Source of the DNA: Edaphobacter aggregans
GTDB taxonomy: Bacteria; Acidobacteriota; Terriglobia; Terriglobales; Acidobacteriaceae
Reading direction: 5' to 3'
Assembly: GCF_003945235.1 (NCBI RefSeq)
Contig: NZ_RSDW01000001.1
Span: 4,620,001-4,652,000, forward strand
DNA: 32,000 nt
Part shown: in pieces, positions 1 to 22,399 of the stretch
How the letters are laid out: each line of letters begins with the position of its first letter
Position numbering within the stretch: position 1 is the stretch's first letter
Made by a program: the position numbers and the translations under genes
Notes under the pieces: model-generated
The model's database searches: none
What the model was told of the DNA's origin: nothing
The model's input: the letters and a program-made list of their open reading frames with translations, nothing else

Positions 1-421
1 CGGAGGAGCGGGCCTCAGGTAATCCTGTGGACGGCGGCATCATGTTGAGTTCGCCGGAGCTGGCGATGGGCAGGGGCTCGGCTTCGAACTCGGGCTGCCG
101 CATGTGCGGGTGGACTTCAAGGTCTTCGGCGGGAATCGACGAAGCGGCGGCTGACTCGGTGTTTGCGATGGTGTTTTCGGCTCCGTCCGTGATGGCTGGG
201 GTGACGGGAGCGGCGGCCTCCATGGCGGCGATCTTCTTTTGCTGCTCGGCCTGTTCGGCCATGCGGAGCTCGTCTTCCATCTGCATGCGGAACTCGTTGG
301 AGGCACGACGGAACTCGCCCATGAGTTTGCCCAGTTGACGCGCGAGTTCGGGCAACTTCTTCGGACCGAAGAGGAGGAGGGCGAGAATAAATATTACGGC
401 GCTATCGCCGAGGCTCGGCAT
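1..421 (-). CDS. Twin-arginine translocase TatA/TatB-family protein; the C-terminal end runs off the window edge
   Basis: Absent from the ORF track because the frame is open to position 1. My translation from ATG (421-419) reads MPSLGDSAVIFILALLLFGPKKLPELARQLGKLMGEFRRASNEFRMQMEDELRMAEQAEQQKK... A short N-terminal TM helix, the FGPKKLPEL hinge and an amphipathic helix are the TatA/B hallmark. More than 140 codons with an acidic/Ala-rich tail suggests TatB-like length. Confidence 0.8.
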   Translation of the reverse strand, partial: MPSLGDSAVIFILALLLFGPKKLPELARQLGKLMGEFRRASNEFRMQMEDELRMAEQAEQQKKIAAMEAAAPVTPAITDGAENTIANTESAAASSIPAEDLEVHPHMRQPEFEAEPLPIASSGELNMMPPSTGLPEARSS

Positions 422-608
422 ACTTGTATCCCATCATAAATGGCTTACGCTCCAACTGAACAGATCGGATGTTGCTGGTTGACGTTGTTGTAAAATCAAT
501 GAGGTAGAGCTGCAGCACTGATGCACGGTAACAGGACGAAAAGATGCACCTTCTGGGGGCGGCTCGTCGTCCAATGAGTTAGAAGCGGCAGAAATGGCCG
601 CAGGTAAG

Positions 609-736
609 GGTTGCAACATCCCCGTGGATTGGGTGACAAGTCACAGCGAATCCACTGCAACCGCGCAGTTCATGCTTTCAACATCCCCGTTTCAGAGGCG
701 CAAGGCATTTGCCAACGACCTTATGAGACTGAAGGC
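609..736 (+). promoter_or_regulatory. Class I NAD+ riboswitch (nadA motif), two tandem domains, SD-sequestering
   Basis: Domain 1: P1 GGTTGC 609-614 / GCAACC 657-662, bulge A+ACATCCCC 615-623, P1a GTGGATT 624-630 / AATCCAC 649-655, lone T656. Domain 2 has the same architecture: P1 GCTTTC 674-679 / GAAGGC 731-736, bulge A+ACATCCCC 680-688, P1a GTTTCA 689-694 / TGAGAC 724-729, lone T730. ACANCCCC is the conserved bulge of the nadA motif. The element lies directly upstream of nadA. Confidence 0.8.
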
Positions 737-744
737 GGAGTATT

Positions 745-1884
745 TTGATCGGTTTACTAGATGAGGTCACGGCAACGGCCGTGGAGACTGTTGCAGATTC
801 GTGTTCCCTCGATAACTACCTGGCCCAGCCGGACCACACCATGGATGCCCGCATCGCAGCCGCTCGCGAGATCCTTGGCAAGGATGTTGTGCTGCTTGGC
901 CACCACTATCAACGCGATGAGGTCATTCGGTTTGCCGACTACACCGGCGACAGCTACAAGCTGAGCAAAGTCGCCTGCGAGACGGACTCGAAGTACATGA
1001 TCTTCTGCGGCGTGCACTTTATGGCCGAGACCGCCGATGTACTCGCTAAACCATGGCAGCAAGTGATTTTGCCGGACCTAAATGCTGGCTGCTCGATGGC
1101 CGACATGGCTGAGATAGGCCAGGTCGAGGACTGCTGGGACTCGCTGGAACGCGCAGGGCTGACTGGCGATCTAATCCCGCTGACTTATATGAACTCCGCC
1201 GCTGCTATTAAGGCGTTCTGCGGCGAGCGCGGCGGGCTGGTCTGCACCTCGTCGAACGCTCGCGGAGCCTTCGAGTGGGCCTTTGCGCGTGCGGGGAAGA
1301 TTCTCTTTCTCCCCGACCAGCACCTCGGGCGCAATACCGCCTTTGCCATGGGCATTCCGCTGAACGAGATGGTTGTTTGGGATCCGTACCAGATCAACGG
1401 GGGCGTGAGTCCGGATCGCTTGAAGGCCGCAAAGGTCATTCTGTGGAAGGGGCATTGCTCGGTGCATCAGCGTTTTCTGCCTGAGCACGTCGACCGCGTC
1501 CGCGCCAACTATCCGGGGATGCAGGTGATCGTGCATCCGGAGTGCCGCTGGGAGGTCTGCCAGAAGGCTGACGCCATCGGCTCGACCGAGCGCATCATCG
1601 AGGTAATTGAGAAGGCTCCGGAAGGTTCAAGCTTTGCCGTCGGCACCGAGATTCATCTGGTCAATCGGATGGCGAAGCGGTTCGCTCCGCTGGGCAAGAA
1701 AGTTATCACGCTCGACGACGCTGGATGCCTGTGCACGACGATGTATCGCATTTCGCCACAACACCTTGCGTGGGCGCTCGAAAATCTGGTCGAAAACAGG
1801 GTTGTGAATCGCATCCATGTGGACGATGATGTGAAGCACTGGGCGAAGGTGGCCCTCGATCGCATGCTGGAGATACGGGTGTGA
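745..1884 (+). CDS. nadA: Quinolinate synthase NadA
   Basis: The 379-aa ORF carries the NadA hallmarks LLGHHYQRDEV, GVHFMAETADVL, CSMADM, VHPEC and GCLCTTMYRI. The TTG start at 745 lies 9 nt after the GAAGG of riboswitch P1. An alternative ATG at 841 would remove about 30 N-terminal residues that long-form NadA proteins usually have. Confidence 0.93.
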   Translation: MIGLLDEVTATAVETVADSCSLDNYLAQPDHTMDARIAAAREILGKDVVLLGHHYQRDEVIRFADYTGDSYKLSKVACETDSKYMIFCGVHFMAETADVLAKPWQQVILPDLNAGCSMADMAEIGQVEDCWDSLERAGLTGDLIPLTYMNSAAAIKAFCGERGGLVCTSSNARGAFEWAFARAGKILFLPDQHLGRNTAFAMGIPLNEMVVWDPYQINGGVSPDRLKAAKVILWKGHCSVHQRFLPEHVDRVRANYPGMQVIVHPECRWEVCQKADAIGSTERIIEVIEKAPEGSSFAVGTEIHLVNRMAKRFAPLGKKVITLDDAGCLCTTMYRISPQHLAWALENLVENRVVNRIHVDDDVKHWAKVALDRMLEIRV

Positions 1885-2318
1885 GCAAGACGTTTACCTT
1901 GAACGAGGCGCAGACGCTGCTGCCTGTGGTGGAAGCATTGTTGCGTAAGGGGCAGGCGGCTGGCGGGCGCGCAGGCGAACTCGACTCAGAGATGCAGGAG
2001 CTTAGCCAGCGGATATTCCTCTTCGGGGGAACGCACGTGAACGTCGTCGTCGCCGCCCGCCGCAAGGCCGAGTACGACAAGTCCGTGCAGGAAGCCAAAG
2101 ATACCCTGGCCGAAATTGAAGCTATCGGAGTGCAAATAAAGGACTTCGAACAAGGCCTGCTGGACTTCCCCTGTCTCCTTGAGGGCAAAACGGTGCTGTT
2201 GTGCTGGAAACTGGGCGAAAAGGAGATCGGCTTCTGGCATGCACCGGAGGATGGCTTCGCCGGGCGCAAGCCGCTGGACTCCCGCTTTGGCAAGACGGAA
2301 CGGGAGCGGCTGAACTAG
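1881..2318 (+). CDS. DUF2203-like small conserved protein, start overlapping the nadA stop
   Basis: 145-aa ORF. The GTG at 1881 overlaps the nadA TGA (1882-1884). MSKTFTLNEAQTLLPVVE...GLLDFPCLLEGKTVLLCWKLGEKEIGFWHAPEDGFAGRKPL matches my memory of the DUF2203 family pattern. The product name is from memory only. Confidence 0.65.
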   Translation: MSKTFTLNEAQTLLPVVEALLRKGQAAGGRAGELDSEMQELSQRIFLFGGTHVNVVVAARRKAEYDKSVQEAKDTLAEIEAIGVQIKDFEQGLLDFPCLLEGKTVLLCWKLGEKEIGFWHAPEDGFAGRKPLDSRFGKTERERLN

Positions 2319-2355
2319 GTTGATCGTGGCCACTTCTGAGCCGAGAATAGCTTGT

Positions 2356-2388
2356 GGATAACTAGATTTATCAAACGATAATTCCTAT
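2356..2388 (+). promoter_or_regulatory. Fur-box-like inverted repeats upstream of the Fur-family gene (candidate auto-operator)
   Basis: GATAA-N6-TTATC at 2356-2371 and GATA-N5-TATC at 2376-2388, in the AT-rich stretch 30-60 nt upstream of the start at 2415. GATAA/TTATC arms are typical of Fur-family operators. Confidence 0.45.
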
Positions 2389-2414
2389 CAAACTTTCGGC
2401 TATACTTTTCACCA

Positions 2415-2846
2415 GTGGTGAATGAGTCCAAGTCGTTTCGTGAGATCTGCCAGGAGAACGGTATCGCCGTGACCCACCAGCGGCAGGTGCTCTACGAAGT
2501 GATGAAGTCGATGCATGGCCATCCGAGCCCGGAAGAGGTCTATGCGCGGGTGAAGAAGAAAGTTCCGGCCATCTCGCTGGCGACCGTCTACAAAAATATT
2601 CATTTGTTTGTGGAGAGCGGCGTCTTTCGCAAGATGAGCATGCATCACGGCTCTGTGCGCGTTGAGATGAACGATGAGCCGCATCACCACATGGTCTGTT
2701 CCAAATGCAGCGCGATTACCGATATAGGCGAGAAAGAGCTTGGCCTGGTTCCCAAACGCAACCGATTGGCCGATGGATTTCTTGTCGAGCGATACTCCGT
2801 TGATGTCATAGGTGTGTGTGCGAAGTGTCAGATGGCTTCAACCTGA
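2415..2846 (+). CDS. Fur-family metalloregulator, probably PerR-type peroxide sensor
   Basis: 143 aa with an N-terminal wHTH (THQRQVLYEVM...ISLATVYKNIHLF), an HHH motif and two CxxC pairs (CSKC, CAKC). The position immediately upstream of ahpC-ahpD suggests a PerR role. Confidence 0.85.
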   Translation: MVNESKSFREICQENGIAVTHQRQVLYEVMKSMHGHPSPEEVYARVKKKVPAISLATVYKNIHLFVESGVFRKMSMHHGSVRVEMNDEPHHHMVCSKCSAITDIGEKELGLVPKRNRLADGFLVERYSVDVIGVCAKCQMAST

Positions 2847-4337: not shown

Positions 4338-5444
4338 TTATTTGGGTTGAGTTTTACCAGGCTGATTAGGATTCGCCGGCGCTGCACCGGGCGATCCTTG
4401 TTCCGGCTTCTTGCCGGGATTCCACTCCGGCTTCCACTTCGTATCGGCGAGCCAGCGCACAGGCTCGACCATCGAAGCGATTGCCTTGGCCATGTGTGCG
4501 AAGTCGATAGTGCGGATCTCGTCGGAGGGCTGATGGTAGTCAGTATGCAGCCCGAAGCTGGAGACGGTGTGAGCGATGATCCCCTGGCGTGCGAGCGCAT
4601 AGTTGTCCGAGCGCTGGAAGAACTGCTCTTTTGGGTGAGGATCGTTGACCAGGTGAGCGCCGTGCTTCGCCAACTCAGGGCCAAGGTCGGAGCGGTCGAA
4701 GCCGGTGAGCCACAGAGTCCCGGCGGGAACAGCGGGGTCAGGCCGGCCGATCATCTCAAACTCGAGGTTGGCGACGATGCTGCTCAGCGGTACCGGTGGG
4801 TGCTGAAGAAACGCTCGGTTACCGAAGCCGCCGATCTCCTCCGAGCCGAAGAGCGCGAAGACGATGGTGCGGTGAGGGCGCTGGCCGGTGGTGAGAAGAC
4901 GCGCGAGGGCGAGCACCGCAGTCGTGCCGGATGCGTCGTCATCCGCGCCGTTGTAGATCGTGTCGCCGTTAACGGCAGGGCCGATGCCAAGATGGTCCAG
5001 GTGGGCAGTCAGCAGGACCACCTCGTTTGGCAACGTAGTGCCGCGCAAGATGCCGATGGCATTCCACGTCTCCTTGCGCGGAGTGTCTTCATACTTGGAG
5101 ATCCGCTGCTGCAACCGCTGTGGCATGGGGCTGGGCAGGGACGCCTTCTGCAGGAAGGTGCCGTCGTCGCCGCCGGGTTCGAGGCCGAGTGACTGAAACT
5201 GCGCGGCAGCGAAGAGTGCGGCGATATGCTCGTCTCGTGTCGCCGAACCTCGGCCATGAAGCTCATCGCTGGCGAGAAAGTTCATGTCGGCACGAACCTC
5301 GCGTTCCAAAGCGGTCTGGGACGATGCCGTTTTTGAGCCGGAGGAGTCGAACGAGTGAGTCTCAGAGTGCAGCGTCTGCGTAAATAGCAGGGAACAGGCG
5401 AACGCGGAGACCGCGAAGGAATGTAGAGGTCTGAATGCAGGCAT
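4338..5444 (-). CDS. Secreted M28-family metallopeptidase (aminopeptidase)
   Basis: 368 aa with an N-terminal signal-like segment and the M28 metal-ligand motifs HLDHLG, GADDDASGTTAVLALARLL and FGSEEIGGFG. Confidence 0.85.
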   Translation of the reverse strand: MPAFRPLHSFAVSAFACSLLFTQTLHSETHSFDSSGSKTASSQTALEREVRADMNFLASDELHGRGSATRDEHIAALFAAAQFQSLGLEPGGDDGTFLQKASLPSPMPQRLQQRISKYEDTPRKETWNAIGILRGTTLPNEVVLLTAHLDHLGIGPAVNGDTIYNGADDDASGTTAVLALARLLTTGQRPHRTIVFALFGSEEIGGFGNRAFLQHPPVPLSSIVANLEFEMIGRPDPAVPAGTLWLTGFDRSDLGPELAKHGAHLVNDPHPKEQFFQRSDNYALARQGIIAHTVSSFGLHTDYHQPSDEIRTIDFAHMAKAIASMVEPVRWLADTKWKPEWNPGKKPEQGSPGAAPANPNQPGKTQPK

Positions 5445-20438: not shown

Positions 20439-21317
20439 ATGGAATGGGTTGCAGAGGCAGGTGTAGAGATCGTCCGGGTGGCTGGGTGGGAGCGAAATGA
20501 GTGGCTACGGCATGGGTTTAGTACGCGGTCGGGGGGCGTATCTACGGTGTATTCAGCGGGTTCTGGCGAATTTAATTTGGGGTGGACGAAAGAGGACGAT
20601 CCGGCTTGTGTCAGGGAGAATCGTGGGCGTTTTCTGCGGTTAGCTAGCGGTGAAATGTCTGGCAATCGTGGTATGCGGATGGTAAATGTGCGGCAGGTTC
20701 ACGGGAACCTGGTGCGAGTGATTCGGGGTGAGGATGGGGTGTTTGAGGGGAAGCTCGAGACTGCCGAAGGTAAGGCTGTGCTTGAGGGGGATGGATTGGT
20801 CACAAATCTTCCTGGTGTGATGCTGGGAGTGGGAACGGCGGATTGTGTTCCGGTGTTGGTGGTGGATGTGGAGAAGAGGGCCGTGGGGGCTTTTCATGCC
20901 GGATGGAGGGGGACGGCGGCTGGGATCGTGGGAGAGGGAATTGAAGCGATGCGGCGAGAGTATGGGGCGCGTCCGGAGGATTTGAGGGCGGCGGTAGGGC
21001 CGAGCATTGGGGCTTGTTGTTATGCGGTGGGGGAAGAGGTTCGGTCGCAGTTCAGGTCGCGGTTTGGATATGCGGACGAGTTGTTTCGGGAGGGGGCCGA
21101 CGGAGGTGAAGTGTCGAAGCTGTACGTCGATCTTTGGGAGTCGAATCGGCGGCAGTTGGTGGATGCGGGAATGAAGGCGGAGCGGATTGAGGTGGTGGGG
21201 GAATGTACGGCGTGTACGCGAGAGGCAGATGGGAGGAGACGGTACTTCTCGCATCGGGCTGAGGCAGGTCGGGCGGGGCGGATGCTGAATGTGATTGGGG
21301 TGGCAGATCGGGAGTGA
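20439..21317 (+). CDS. pgeF: Peptidoglycan editing factor PgeF (YfiH/DUF152, laccase-domain protein)
   Basis: 292 aa with HGFSTRSGGVS, VRQVHG, DGLVT, GTADCVPVL, FHAGWRGT, GPSIGACCY and CTAC...FSHR. Confidence 0.88.
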   Translation: MEWVAEAGVEIVRVAGWERNEWLRHGFSTRSGGVSTVYSAGSGEFNLGWTKEDDPACVRENRGRFLRLASGEMSGNRGMRMVNVRQVHGNLVRVIRGEDGVFEGKLETAEGKAVLEGDGLVTNLPGVMLGVGTADCVPVLVVDVEKRAVGAFHAGWRGTAAGIVGEGIEAMRREYGARPEDLRAAVGPSIGACCYAVGEEVRSQFRSRFGYADELFREGADGGEVSKLYVDLWESNRRQLVDAGMKAERIEVVGECTACTREADGRRRYFSHRAEAGRAGRMLNVIGVADRE

Positions 21318-21454
21318 GAGATCTAAAAGCTGGTTGTCATGGTCTAAATTGTTTCTAACAAAGGCCAGCCGCTTCTAGTAACGCCAGTTTACCGATCAAA
21401 TTGCCTTAGATCAATCATATTCGCCACTTGTTCCCCCGTTCTAAACCTTTCCGA

Positions 21455-21485
21455 TTGACTTAAACTTCTCCGGTTAGTCTATAAT
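21455..21485 (+). promoter_or_regulatory. Near-consensus sigma70 promoter driving the wHTH ORF (and possibly the tRNA)
   Basis: TTGACT (21455-21460), a 19-nt spacer (slightly long), then a perfect TATAAT (21480-21485). The SD AGGAG lies 9 nt before the ATG at 21506. Confidence 0.5.
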
Positions 21486-21505
21486 GAACTCAGGAGTTAT
21501 ACGTT

Positions 21506-21919
21506 ATGGATACAGCTAATCTGGAACAGGTGAGAACCGTTTCTAACTTGGCTAACAAAATCATCGCAAAACAGACCGAACTGGAGGCTTTGCTTGCGAG
21601 GTGGAGAGAACTATTTCCGGATACTTCTCCTTTAGAACAAGCCGCGGCCGAATCGCTACCAGAACAGCCGTCGGGTTCCCTTGATGAGCTGATAGTTACT
21701 CATTTAGAGCGGAATCCAGATCGAGAGTTCAACGTAGCTGCTCTCATGCAAGAGTTAAAGGTTCCTTCGGTTAGTTTCGGGACCCAGTTGAGCAAGCTTA
21801 CCCTTCAAGGCAGGATTATTCGCACAGGGAGAGGACTATATAAAGCTAAATCGGACGCGATTCGTTTCAAAAGCATTTTCGGAAACCAAGAAGAAGAGCC
21901 AACCGAAGTTGGCTCTTGA
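21506..21919 (+). CDS. Hypothetical small protein, coiled-coil N-half and putative winged-helix C-half, low GC
   Basis: 137-aa ORF with a good promoter and SD. One 60-nt row of the gene counted by hand is 45% G+C, against 60% in a flanking pgeF row. It has three TTA Leu codons (e.g. 21632-21634). The C-terminal LSKLTLQGRIIRTGRGLYKA resembles wHTH wings of the AbiEi-antitoxin N-domain type (weak, from memory). Confidence 0.6.
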   Translation: MDTANLEQVRTVSNLANKIIAKQTELEALLARWRELFPDTSPLEQAAAESLPEQPSGSLDELIVTHLERNPDREFNVAALMQELKVPSVSFGTQLSKLTLQGRIIRTGRGLYKAKSDAIRFKSIFGNQEEEPTEVGS

Positions 21920-21924
21920 TTTAT

Positions 21925-22008
21925 GGCGGCGTGGTGGAATTGGCATACACACCAGTCTTTAAAACTGGCACCTGTCCGGGTTTGTGGGTTCGAACCCCAC
22001 CGCCGCCA
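21925..22008 (+). tRNA. Class II (Leu-type) tRNA with 5'-UUA-3' in the anticodon position (ochre-suppressor configuration; one base away from tRNA-Leu(UAA))
   Basis: Hand-folded cloverleaf. Acceptor GGCGGCG / CGCCGCC plus A73. D arm GTGG-AATTGGCATA-CACA. Anticodon stem CCAGT (21952-21956) / ACTGG (21964-21968). Loop CTTTAAA (21957-21963), anticodon TTA at 21959-21961. 15-nt variable arm (ACCT/GGGT stem). T arm GTGGG-TTCGAAC-CCCAC. No encoded CCA. It starts 5 nt after the stop of the upstream ORF. Confidence 0.85.
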
Positions 22009-22020
22009 CTAACTTTAGTT

Positions 22021-22206
22021 CTACGACGTTCGGTAGACCTGACCTGGGGGTGTTCCCGCACCTTCCAGGGGGATACCAAACAAACGAGAGAAGCATGGTT
22101 AGAATGCTCACTCGCCTTTGCTGCACCGACCGGAGCGGTAACTCCGGCCTTACCGTTATGACTGGAGGTGCCGTGGGTATCCCCTGCGGTACCCCGTCAT
22201 AGACGG
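22021..22206 (+). other. Hairpin-dense GC-rich non-coding segment (candidate structured RNA, unknown class)
   Basis: Six consecutive stem-loops: CTACGA/TCG(G)TAG at 22021-22036; CCTGG-G-GGTG...CACC-tt-CCAGG at about 22043-22069; AGCAT/ATGCT at about 22092-22108; CCGGAG/CTCCGG at about 22129-22146; an 11-bp GGTGCCGTGGG/CCTGCGGTACC at about 22167-22192; and CCCGTC/GACGGG at about 22192-22206. No ORF of 60 aa or more with sensible composition. Confidence 0.25.
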
Positions 22207-22328
22207 GACCTAAACAGCATTTTAAACCTTGACATACACGTTGTCCACCATTGTCTTCAGTAAATAGTTAGTACCTTAGTGGTGTCCTCTGCTCATGGAA
22301 AAGAAATAAGGAGAAAATTCTGAATCTC

Positions 22329-22344
22329 TAGACCGACTGGTCTA
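22329..22344 (+). promoter_or_regulatory. Perfect palindrome TAGACC-GACT-GGTCTA, candidate TetR operator upstream of the SDR gene
   Basis: 16-bp inverted repeat 56 nt upstream of the SDR ATG (22400). A TetR-family gene lies downstream in the same orientation. Confidence 0.45.
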
Positions 22345-22399
22345 CTCTATTGAGGTGCGAGGCAAGAAGACCCTCGAAGATTCAGGAGGTATCACCCCG

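Follow-up and report, generated by a model that had tools for sequence, protein, structure and literature searches.

We analyzed a 32,000-nucleotide stretch of the Edaphobacter aggregans genome (the window), which contains one tRNA gene, at 21925..22008 on the + strand. This gene encodes a class II tRNA with a leucine-type body and a genuine UUA anticodon, which is complementary to the stop codon UAA. The gene is accessory and foreign, and is not the housekeeping tRNA-Leu(UAA). It is linked to the gene for a small winged-helix protein, and this linkage recurs in other bacteria. From comparing these genes with their relatives, we lean towards the view that the tRNA is a regulated ochre suppressor that inserts leucine, is carried by a mobile element, and was acquired horizontally as part of an accessory module.

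In the window, ARAGORN reports just one tRNA, at 21925-22009 (+), which it labels 'tRNA-Stop' with anticodon tta. The Rfam tRNA model (RF00005) matches 21925-22008 over its full length (model positions 1-71), with 58.2 bits and a gathering score of 29. In the Rfam alignment, the 5-bp anticodon stem CCAGU/ACUGG encloses the loop CUUUAAA, so positions 34-36 (21959-21961) are UUA and the loop reads C32-U33-UUA-A37-A38. A first-pass annotation, made from the letters of the window alone, had described a leucine-type tRNA with this anticodon, had placed 21960 at position 35 by the same stem (CCAGT/ACTGG) and loop, and had suggested ARAGORN as a check. Both tools agree with it: ARAGORN finds a canonical tRNA with anticodon tta rather than TAA, and Rfam places the anticodon identically. 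The cloverleaf is of the canonical 7/5 type, with four perfectly paired stems (acceptor 7 bp, D stem 3 bp, anticodon 5 bp, and T stem 5 bp). It includes the 15-nt variable region and the discriminator A73 that the annotation had listed; CCA is not encoded. The loop is of the suppressor type, with 7 nt, U33, a purine at position 37, and an anticodon complementary to a stop codon. The free-energy fold of the tRNA by itself is uninformative (z = -1.45), as is usual for tRNAs. An 8/4 or 9/3 fold of the allo-tRNA type was rejected because U8 opposes C65, which cannot pair, and because Rfam gives 7/5. The assignment to class II also agrees with covariation across the family of related tRNAs (below).

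To place the body of this tRNA, we scanned species-representative genomes for its 15-nt D-arm string (GGAATTGGCATACAC), with the anticodon left free, and obtained at least 120 loci. Among the matches listed, 116 of 120 carriers have leucine anticodons (UAA 80, CAA 20, UAG 11, and CAG 5) and 4 do not, so this D arm is a hallmark of bacterial tRNA-Leu. The string is also invariant in our tRNA alignment, and the annotated phage tRNAs among the BLAST matches listed are all tRNA-Leu. The T stem (GUGGG/CCCAC) does not differ from that of canonical Leu(UAA) tRNAs, and A36-A37-A38 and C32/A38 agree with the canonical Leu(UAA) loop. Leucyl-tRNA synthetase (LeuRS) recognizes A73 and the architecture of the D arm and elbow and ignores the anticodon, as in the leucine-inserting amber suppressor supP. 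Because LeuRS does not read the anticodon, we expect the window tRNA to be leucylated. By decoding it is no leucine isoacceptor, since its anticodon is UUA and not NAG or YAA. A36-A37-A38 is also the context that MiaA acts on, which aids the decoding of codons that start with U. A tyrosine or serine identity was considered and rejected, as the D arm and all annotated relatives listed are Leu-type, although some charging with tyrosine is possible.

UUA is one substitution away from UAA, and the anticodon could in principle stem from an error in sequencing or from an A-to-T change that very recently hit position 21960 of a housekeeping tRNA-Leu(UAA). We give this explanation almost no credence. 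First, other leucine-type tRNAs, sequenced in independent assemblies, have the same anticodon. The four carriers with non-leucine anticodons, among the matches listed from the D-arm scan, are L105 (UGA, from a metagenome-assembled genome of the Acidobacteriaceae, identical to the window tRNA in its acceptor and T arms), L076 (UUA, from an alphaproteobacterial metagenome-assembled genome), L091 (AGA), and L045 (AUC). A metagenome scan that demanded a base other than A at position 35 gave 12 contigs with 11 distinct tRNAs (L127 = L129). All 12 contigs have Leu-type bodies, with anticodons UUA (L125, L133, L127, and L129), UGA (L124, L130, and L131), CGA (L134), UUC (L123), UUG (L126), GUG (L128), and GUC (L132). 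We know of 13 distinct Leu-type relatives with UUA, from metagenomes or metagenome-assembled genomes, that are 64-93% identical to the window tRNA. The loop CUUUAAA is also present in L076, L125, L127/L129, L133, L135-L140, L145, L146, L148/L149, and L150, and L141-L143 and L144 have CCUUAAA (with C33). The tRNA from L125 shares 92.9% identity, and its whole anticodon stem, with the window tRNA, while L133 retains UUA within a compensated stem (GUGGU/ACCAC).

Second, the window tRNA is not a near-copy of a canonical tRNA. The first-pass annotation had described it as one base away from canonical tRNA-Leu(UAA), but the closest canonical genes that we retrieved are just 81% (Eggerthella) or 75% (the acidobacterium Sulfotelmatobacter) identical. 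The window tRNA and most of the tRNAs with non-leucine anticodons have U31-A39 where canonical tRNAs have A31-U39, and their variable arm is longer. Third, the locus itself is accessory, as described below. In a 19-sequence alignment of the family, the cloverleaf is 99.5% paired, and 12 of 20 pairs show compensatory changes, which far exceeds the level in shuffled and slid controls. In three family tRNAs, the loss of G18G19 coincides with a change of the T loop from UUCGA to UGCGA, so that the tertiary fold also seems to be selected. Judging from the alignment, the UUA anticodon is under selection in this family: it is kept at 64-93% identity while the acceptor and anticodon stems covary. With UUA retained in relatives whose stems covary, we regard a sequencing error or a recent mutation as effectively excluded. 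Of the four origins that the first-pass annotation had offered, these two fall away in light of the 13 relatives; the data fit both of the others, a limited or conditional device and a mobile-element relic or component.

One tRNA from the metagenome scan has an unusual mixture of features. L128:541-626, on an AT-rich, phage-like contig, encodes a Leu-shaped tRNA of class II whose anticodon is GUG and which has C73 and G at position -1; these are marks of histidine identity on a leucine-type body.

The window tRNA lies within an accessory, horizontally acquired segment of roughly 1 kb (21320..22306; the left edge is approximate) that contains the whole module: a 137-codon open reading frame (ORF137), the tRNA, and a small ORF. 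The GC content of this segment is 0.48-0.51, versus about 0.6 in the flanks, and the tRNA is in the window's lowest-GC part (0.48). Similarly, the GC content at third codon positions is 0.44 for ORF137 versus 0.6-0.84 in the surrounding host genes. This matches the first-pass description of a low-GC islet with the tRNA 5 nt past an ORF (21506-21919) that ends in TGA. The module is flanked by a Cu-oxidase_4 (PgeF-type) gene and an SDR gene. Via the downstream SDR gene, we retrieved three relatives of this locus: a metagenomic contig with a nucleotide identity of 87%, Edaphobacter flagellatus, and a third one at 80%. The three identities to the window are 87%, 80%, and 78%, and the alignments begin only at 22307-22318. 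ORF137, the tRNA, and the small ORF are absent from all three, which was a comparison that the first-pass annotation had called for, and the right border is fixed at 22307. An attempt to reconstruct the empty site yielded the right border only, since no two relatives agree in synteny with the window or each other left of the SDR gene. We found no terminal inverted or direct repeats of at least 14 nt around the module.

ORF137 (EDE15_3890; 21506..21919, + strand, stop codon TGA) is identical to a hypothetical protein of E. aggregans. Its AlphaFold model has a helix (residues 3-36), a disordered linker (37-58), and a winged helix-turn-helix (59-114), with a predicted local distance difference test (pLDDT) score of 76.6. 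Its top structural neighbors are DNA-binding domains of the MarR or IclR type, all of them weak (E = 4e-3 or worse). ORF137 scores 19.6 bits against AbiEi_4, which is under Pfam's cut-off of 25 bits, and four of eight members of its family match AbiEi_4 (best E = 3.6e-7). From the model and these similarities, ORF137 is probably a transcriptional regulator of the module.

Proteins of 137-201 amino acids with this architecture (a helix at the N-terminus, then a low-complexity linker, then a winged helix at the C-terminus) are encoded upstream of many of the tRNAs with non-leucine anticodons. A profile of the ORF137 family found 41 proteins in a database clustered at 90%, and in a larger search it found 453 cluster representatives with E ≤ 1e-3 among 1.84 billion. 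In nine of nine further contexts of family members, a Leu-type tRNA lies 90-250 nt downstream, with anticodon UUA in eight and UUU in one (L147). Among all Leu-type tRNAs that are linked to a family winged-helix gene, 10 have UUA, including the window tRNA, and 5 have another anticodon (UGA, UUC, UUG, AUC, or UUU). In L125, a near-identical tRNA(UUA) directly abuts a related winged-helix gene, so the compact layout of the window is a recurrent type. Furthermore, in 11 of 12 modules (many of whose winged-helix genes are related to one another), the winged-helix gene ends with TGA, which a UUA anticodon cannot read. These stops are consistent with protection of the gene from its own tRNA.

Some of the related loci have other arrangements. 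About 850 nt upstream of the UUU cassette of L147, there is a leucyl-tRNA synthetase gene (226-2655, minus strand), which might reflect a chance insertion near the housekeeping leuS. In L105 (2006-2600, minus strand) and L124 (212-1000), a Leu-type tRNA with the serine anticodon UGA follows a different ORF, of 163 amino acids and with no match in Pfam. The acceptor and T arms of this tRNA are as in the window tRNA, and it is followed by a Shine-Dalgarno sequence and a 9-codon ORF, MCPSSCVKA, with two TCT serine codons. In the actinobacterial loci L123 (UUC), L126 (UUG), and L045 (AUC), the winged-helix gene and the tRNA are about 190-200 nt apart. Their leader is different, with a GC-rich hairpin whose loop holds a conserved CCUUAGGCAAG; in L123 and L126, an ORF at this loop reads ...R-G-G-P-stop (TAG).

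Most of the related cassettes have additional components. A long hairpin, with 7 covarying pairs, is followed by an irregular tRNA (tRNA1) and then by the Leu-type tRNA. tRNA1 has the acceptor sequence GUGACGG, C73, and anticodon UGU, GUU, or GGU; its nearest model in Rfam is tRNA-Sec, at 44.6 bits versus a gathering score of 47. In most cassettes, the 3' side of the Leu-type tRNA has a promoter with the palindrome CAGCGAGCGCTCGCTG and then an intact IS1-like DDE transposase, and the palindrome recurs upstream of the cassette's operon. We also noticed the palindrome AACAGCGAGCGCTCGCT at L135:3583-3599 and 4807-4823 and at L141:3570-3583 and 4773-4786. One site is upstream of the operon of a 96-99-amino-acid ORF, the winged-helix gene, and the tRNA, and the other is between the -35 and -10 of the transposase's promoter. 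The presence of AACAGCGAGCGCTCGCT at both promoters suggests that one repressor acts on both the operon and the transposase.

The cassettes also contain what we consider the strongest sign that UAA is decoded. We aligned the leaders of nine insertion sequence (IS)-type cassettes (L136, L142, L144, L145, L146, L147, L148, L150, and L127). In each, the region between the winged-helix gene and the tRNAs (L136:4436-4540 and its equivalents in the other eight) contains an ATG, one or two codons, always TAA, and then, in frame, X-Ile-Arg-Gly-Pro-Pro, with the long covarying hairpin after it. The mini-ORF begins a few bases past the stop codon of the winged-helix gene. Because this offset varies, the leader would be an independent unit of translation. 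All of the variation within IRGPP is synonymous (ATT/ATC/ATA, CGA/AGA/AGG, GGA/GGG, and CCA/CCC), the flanking codons vary freely, and the frame is preserved through a 6-nt insertion in L150 and an added codon in L147. RGPP is reported to be the most robust known arrest motif; it is resistant to elongation factor P, acts behind diverse preceding sequences, and is avoided in bacterial proteomes more than any other tetrapeptide (PMC12992588). (In the window, it occurs once over six frames of 32 kb.) A ribosome that arrests at this motif would be at a distance of 6-30 nt from the hairpin located before the tRNA genes. In the simplest reading, the leader is a sensor: ribosomes get to RGPP, and arrest there, only when the UAA is read by the tRNA(UUA) encoded in the same cassette. 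The in-frame TAA-IRGPP of the nine cassettes thus suggests, indirectly, that UAA is decoded in this family of tRNAs.

We considered whether the transposon itself needs the suppressor. This candidate was rejected: four IS1-like transposase genes were translated, and all are uninterrupted, with no in-frame TAA. They end with TGA in L135, L141, and L144; in L129, the 3' end of the gene has diverged, and its stop is TAA. A release-factor-like neighbor was also rejected: a 189-amino-acid ORF in L135 resembles baeRF_family6 (E = 0.0096), but we treat the hit as spurious, since the ORF is unrelated to the one at that place in L141 and is absent from the window.

More broadly, the tRNA could be a helper for a recoded mobile element or phage that reads TAA as leucine. 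The tRNA's mobile-element origin fits with this, and suppressor tRNAs encoded by phages are a known device. However, neither the window nor the related loci contain phage genes, and a scan of 2.9 million viral contigs gave no Leu-body tRNA with a non-leucine anticodon, so we rejected a phage origin. The cassettes' transposase and winged-helix genes are intact without in-frame TAA; the sole in-frame TAA that we found is that of the leader. Recoding is therefore very unlikely.

The module in the window is more compact. ORF137 has a single close homolog, P0002 (76% identity), which is in another genomic context and adjoins an IS1595-type transposase (L001/L002). The two modules have in common a promoter-like site, the ORF, a 10-bp terminal hairpin, and the small ORF. 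The promoter-like site is TTGACT-19 nt-TATAAT (21455..21485, + strand), as read from the sequence; its function is putative. Both hexamers and the 19-nt spacing are kept in L001/L002 despite diverged flanks. (Our scan for consensus promoters took spacers of 16-18 nt only and thus missed this site.) It is followed by a Shine-Dalgarno sequence, AGGAG (21492-21496, + strand). The 10-bp hairpin, AAGAGCCAAC-CGAA-GTTGGCTCTT (21894..21917, + strand; reported on the opposite strand by the stem-loop scan), lies at the end of ORF137, 7 nt before the tRNA. It is 100% identical in L001/L002, versus about 72% nucleotide identity for the remainder of the ORF, and it is possibly an attenuator or an RNA-processing site.

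The small ORF (22095..22202, + strand) has 35 codons (MVRMLTRLCCTDRSGNSGLTVMTGGAVGIPCGTPS) and ends with TAG. Across the two modules its length is 35-38 codons. The counterpart in L001/L002 has 82% protein identity, with an in-frame 9-nt indel, and the changes are mostly synonymous (for instance, AGA to CGT for arginine), which indicates coding selection. A 6-bp hairpin, CCCGUC-AUA-GACGGG (22193..22207, + strand), surrounds the TAG, as read from the sequence, and its core (CCGTCATAGACGG) is kept in L001/L002. We also considered that readthrough of this TAG might produce a fusion, and rejected this, as the window and L001 show no conservation past the TAG.

An active suppressor would be expensive for this host. 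We counted stop codons in an approximate gene call of the window, with 30 genes: TAA is the commonest (14, or about 47%), followed by TGA (10) and TAG (6). (The first-pass count of 15 TAA in 30 was close but not exact.) The genes that end in TAA include most of the ATP synthase operon. Back-up stops are lacking: behind TAA-ending genes, the next in-frame stop comes after a median of 51 codons, and for two ATP synthase genes after 364 and 490 codons. These figures bear out the earlier expectation that an efficient suppressor would be costly. Because the genome is not buffered against ochre suppression, the window tRNA has to be kept scarce, act conditionally, or do harm upon induction.

One way to account for the host's tolerance of such a tRNA is silence. 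The module might be a decaying remnant of a fuller transposon cassette that is silent or nearly so and has no present function in E. aggregans. Compared to the IS-type cassettes, it is missing the transposase, tRNA1, the 96-99-amino-acid upstream ORF, and the leader, and there are no terminal repeats around it. But decay seems inconsistent with four perfectly paired tRNA stems, with intact ORFs (ORF137 and the small ORF) that are under purifying selection relative to the 76%-identical copy in L001/L002, and with the conservation of the promoter hexamers and of the hairpin before the tRNA. The compact layout also recurs in L125. We doubt that the module is a remnant.

We also considered that the tRNA-shaped RNA has no role in decoding. 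It might be a processing or stabilizing signal, a decoy or antitoxin for an enzyme that targets tRNAs, or a tRNA that is charged or tagged but not delivered to the ribosome. Several observations favor this possibility, or otherwise weigh against a leucine-inserting suppressor. U35, A36, and A73 are determinants for tyrosyl-tRNA synthetase as well, which makes the inserted amino acid uncertain. In L001 (10424-10492, and the same in L002), the tRNA's slot contains a 69-nt minihelix that resembles the acceptor and T arms of transfer-messenger RNA (tmRNA) and has no anticodon arm, so the module can persist without decoding. This minihelix (GGGGGUAG...UCCACCA) has G3:U70 and an encoded CCA; it matches just the two ends of Rfam's tmRNA model, at 35.5 bits (below the gathering score of 47), and is not called by ARAGORN. 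In L145, a minihelix is present where tRNA1 would be. ORF137 resembles the winged helix of the AbiEi antitoxin, and AbiE and MenT toxins target the acceptor ends of tRNAs; we found no operator for ORF137 itself. In three family tRNAs, the elbow between the D loop and the T loop is altered. Other family members have sense anticodons (UGA, CGA, UUC, UUG, UUU, AUC, and GUC), so stop reading is not the only selected state. The window module has no UAA-RGPP leader, second tRNA, or transposase, and no RGPP-type motif was found in it or in its nearest relatives, so the strongest evidence for decoding comes from distant cousins, whose tRNAs are 64-73% identical and whose proteins are 12-19% identical. 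Finally, the allo-like tRNA1 of similar polycistrons was charged in E. coli but was not used in translation, according to Mukai et al. (2017, Nucleic Acids Research; PMC5389517).

Despite these points, conservation of the anticodon loop would be superfluous in a processing signal or decoy, whereas UUA persists at 64-93% identity. Every arm of the body agrees with a working tRNA-Leu, and the TAA-IRGPP leader of the related cassettes makes sense only if UAA is translated. Furthermore, the window module contains no nucleotidyltransferase of the AbiEii or MenT type and no other toxin gene. A role without decoding is unlikely in our judgment, if the most serious challenge to a suppressor.

Minihelices are recurrent in these modules. 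Minihelix-like acceptor/T-arm sequences lie beside the Leu-type tRNA(UUA) at L125:~960-990 and L145:~4525-4565, and the one that replaces tRNA1 in L145 reads gaugacgg-ugguu-guggguucgaaacccac-ccgucaccc.

Returning to the suppressor, we propose that ORF137 and the tRNA are co-transcribed from the one promoter-like site. The tRNA would be released by RNase P and 3'-end processing, and CCA would be added. LeuRS would then charge it, and its A36-A37-A38 context would make it a substrate for MiaA. It would insert leucine at UAA and, through wobble at U34, more weakly at UAG. ORF137, as a small dimeric winged-helix protein, would repress the operon and keep the tRNA scarce, and the hairpin at the end of ORF137 may limit read-through into the tRNA. 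The window module would be a stripped-down member of a family in soil bacteria whose fuller versions add an allo-like tRNA and an IS1-like transposase; in those, the leader (Met-X-UAA-X-Ile-Arg-Gly-Pro-Pro) would arrest ribosomes only upon readthrough of UAA.

With low confidence, we suggest that the module's purpose is to serve the mobile element as a readthrough or toxicity device that is conditional and limits itself. We favor this purpose because of the linkage to transposons, the AbiEi-like regulator, and the toxicity of mis-decoding allo-tRNAs when induced in E. coli. As a still broader speculation, which we hold tentatively and would not bet on, soil bacteria swap a suppression cassette composed of tRNA(UUA), a winged-helix repressor, IS1-like transposons, and a UAA-RGPP gauge. 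E. aggregans would have a minimal variant, with conditional and potentially toxic readthrough of UAA across the proteome for maintenance of the element or for conflict with phages or rival elements, and the relatives with sense anticodons would have been retargeted to read serine, glutamate, glutamine, lysine, or aspartate codons as leucine.

Natural nonsense suppressors in free-living bacteria with the standard code are rare and mostly unexplained, and the window tRNA belongs to a conserved, mobile family of them. If our proposal is correct, then stop-codon readthrough or leucine mistranslation is a trait that elements carry between genomes and not an accident. The UAA-RGPP leader would be a new kind of sensor, which reports on the activity of a tRNA instead of on protein export or a metabolite, and it makes the in-vivo activity of the family's tRNAs directly testable. 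For engineering of the genetic code, the family may provide natural, host-tolerated scaffolds for ochre suppressors, along with a candidate regulator. As a caution for annotators, calls of 'tRNA-Stop' or 'pseudo' in Acidobacteria may be real genes.

We also noticed three features elsewhere in the window. Two tandem matches to the nadA riboswitch (609-662 and 674-736; 62.7 and 43.8 bits, with a gathering score of 37.5) are directly upstream of the gene for the quinolinate synthase NadA (745-1884). A near-perfect palindrome, TAGACC-GACT-GGTCTA (22327-22345), is upstream of the SDR/TetR gene pair, in the stretch that is conserved in relatives, and is probably a TetR operator. And within the Cu-oxidase_4 (PgeF-type) gene, the GC skew of 20500-21000 is +0.50, which is far above that of neighbors on the same strand.

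Natural suppressor-like tRNAs on mobile DNA of Acidobacteria are already on record (PMC5389517; reviewed in PMC7609411), as are deliberate mistranslators (tRNA-ProX; PMC11415595). In a limited search of the accessible literature, we did not find a canonical 7/5, leucine-type family in which UUA is dominant, nor an obligatory winged-helix partner, carriage by IS1-like elements, or a UAA-RGPP leader. The closest precedent is the work of Mukai et al., who reported polycistrons of two or three allo-tRNA-like and irregular tRNAs (tRNA0/1/2) in acidobacterial metatranscriptomes, suggested that the irregular tRNAs may be nonsense or missense suppressors tied to toxin-antitoxin systems, and found that inducing mis-decoding allo-tRNAs is toxic in E. 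coli (PMC5389517). Those polycistrons are from the same phylum and habitat, have mismatches between anticodon and identity that include UUA, and lie near transposable elements and genes that resemble toxin-antitoxin systems. By description, they also match our related cassettes (hairpin, allo-like tRNA1, Leu-type tRNA(UUA), and transposase), and the window has one tRNA. The overlap, and the anticodon-variable family that is tied to a winged-helix protein and IS1-like transposons, had been missed by the first-pass annotation. Allo-tRNAs differ in being Ser-type, with 8/4 or 9/3 folds and a 12-bp acceptor branch, whereas the window tRNA is 7/5 and Leu-type. The accessible part of the article does not mention leucine identity, a winged-helix partner, an IS1-like transposase, or a UAA-RGPP leader.

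Other systems share some features with the window's module. E. coli supP/Su6 (leuX, CUA) also combines a leucine body with a stop-reading anticodon and relies on LeuRS ignoring the anticodon, but it is a lab-selected amber mutant of a housekeeping gene, whereas the window tRNA is natural, conserved, accessory, part of a mobile module, and ochre. Like the window tRNA, the suppressor tRNAs of recoded phages are carried by mobile elements and have anticodons complementary to a stop codon. However, recoded phages have many genes with in-frame stops, usually TAG or TGA, and here we have no phage, no relative on a viral contig, and no recoded gene.

In the abortive-infection toxin-antitoxin system AbiE, the antitoxin AbiEi represses its own expression, and toxins of the AbiE type target tRNAs. 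The winged helix of our partner proteins matches AbiEi_4 (with ORF137 below Pfam's cut-off), but AbiEi has an N-terminal winged helix and a C-terminal neutralizing domain, while in ORF137 a coiled coil comes first and the winged helix is at the C-terminus. Also, none of the ten ORFs that flank the window tRNA has the domain of the AbiEii nucleotidyltransferase (DUF1814).

The tRNA-ProX of Streptomyces and Kitasatospora, with its synthetase ProRSx, is likewise a natural tRNA from soil bacteria that mixes identity and anticodon and whose role is unsettled (PMC11415595). It differs in having a dedicated synthetase paralog and in reading sense codons; here there is no linked synthetase, and the dominant anticodon reads a stop. 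Finally, the related cassettes resemble the RAPP/RGPP arrest peptides SecM, ApdA, and ApdP (PMC12992588, PMC10951233) in encoding RGPP near a downstream hairpin. In the cassettes, though, the RGPP lies behind the in-frame UAA of a mini-ORF of 2-3 codons, the nascent chain would be about 9 residues long, and the downstream genes are tRNAs.

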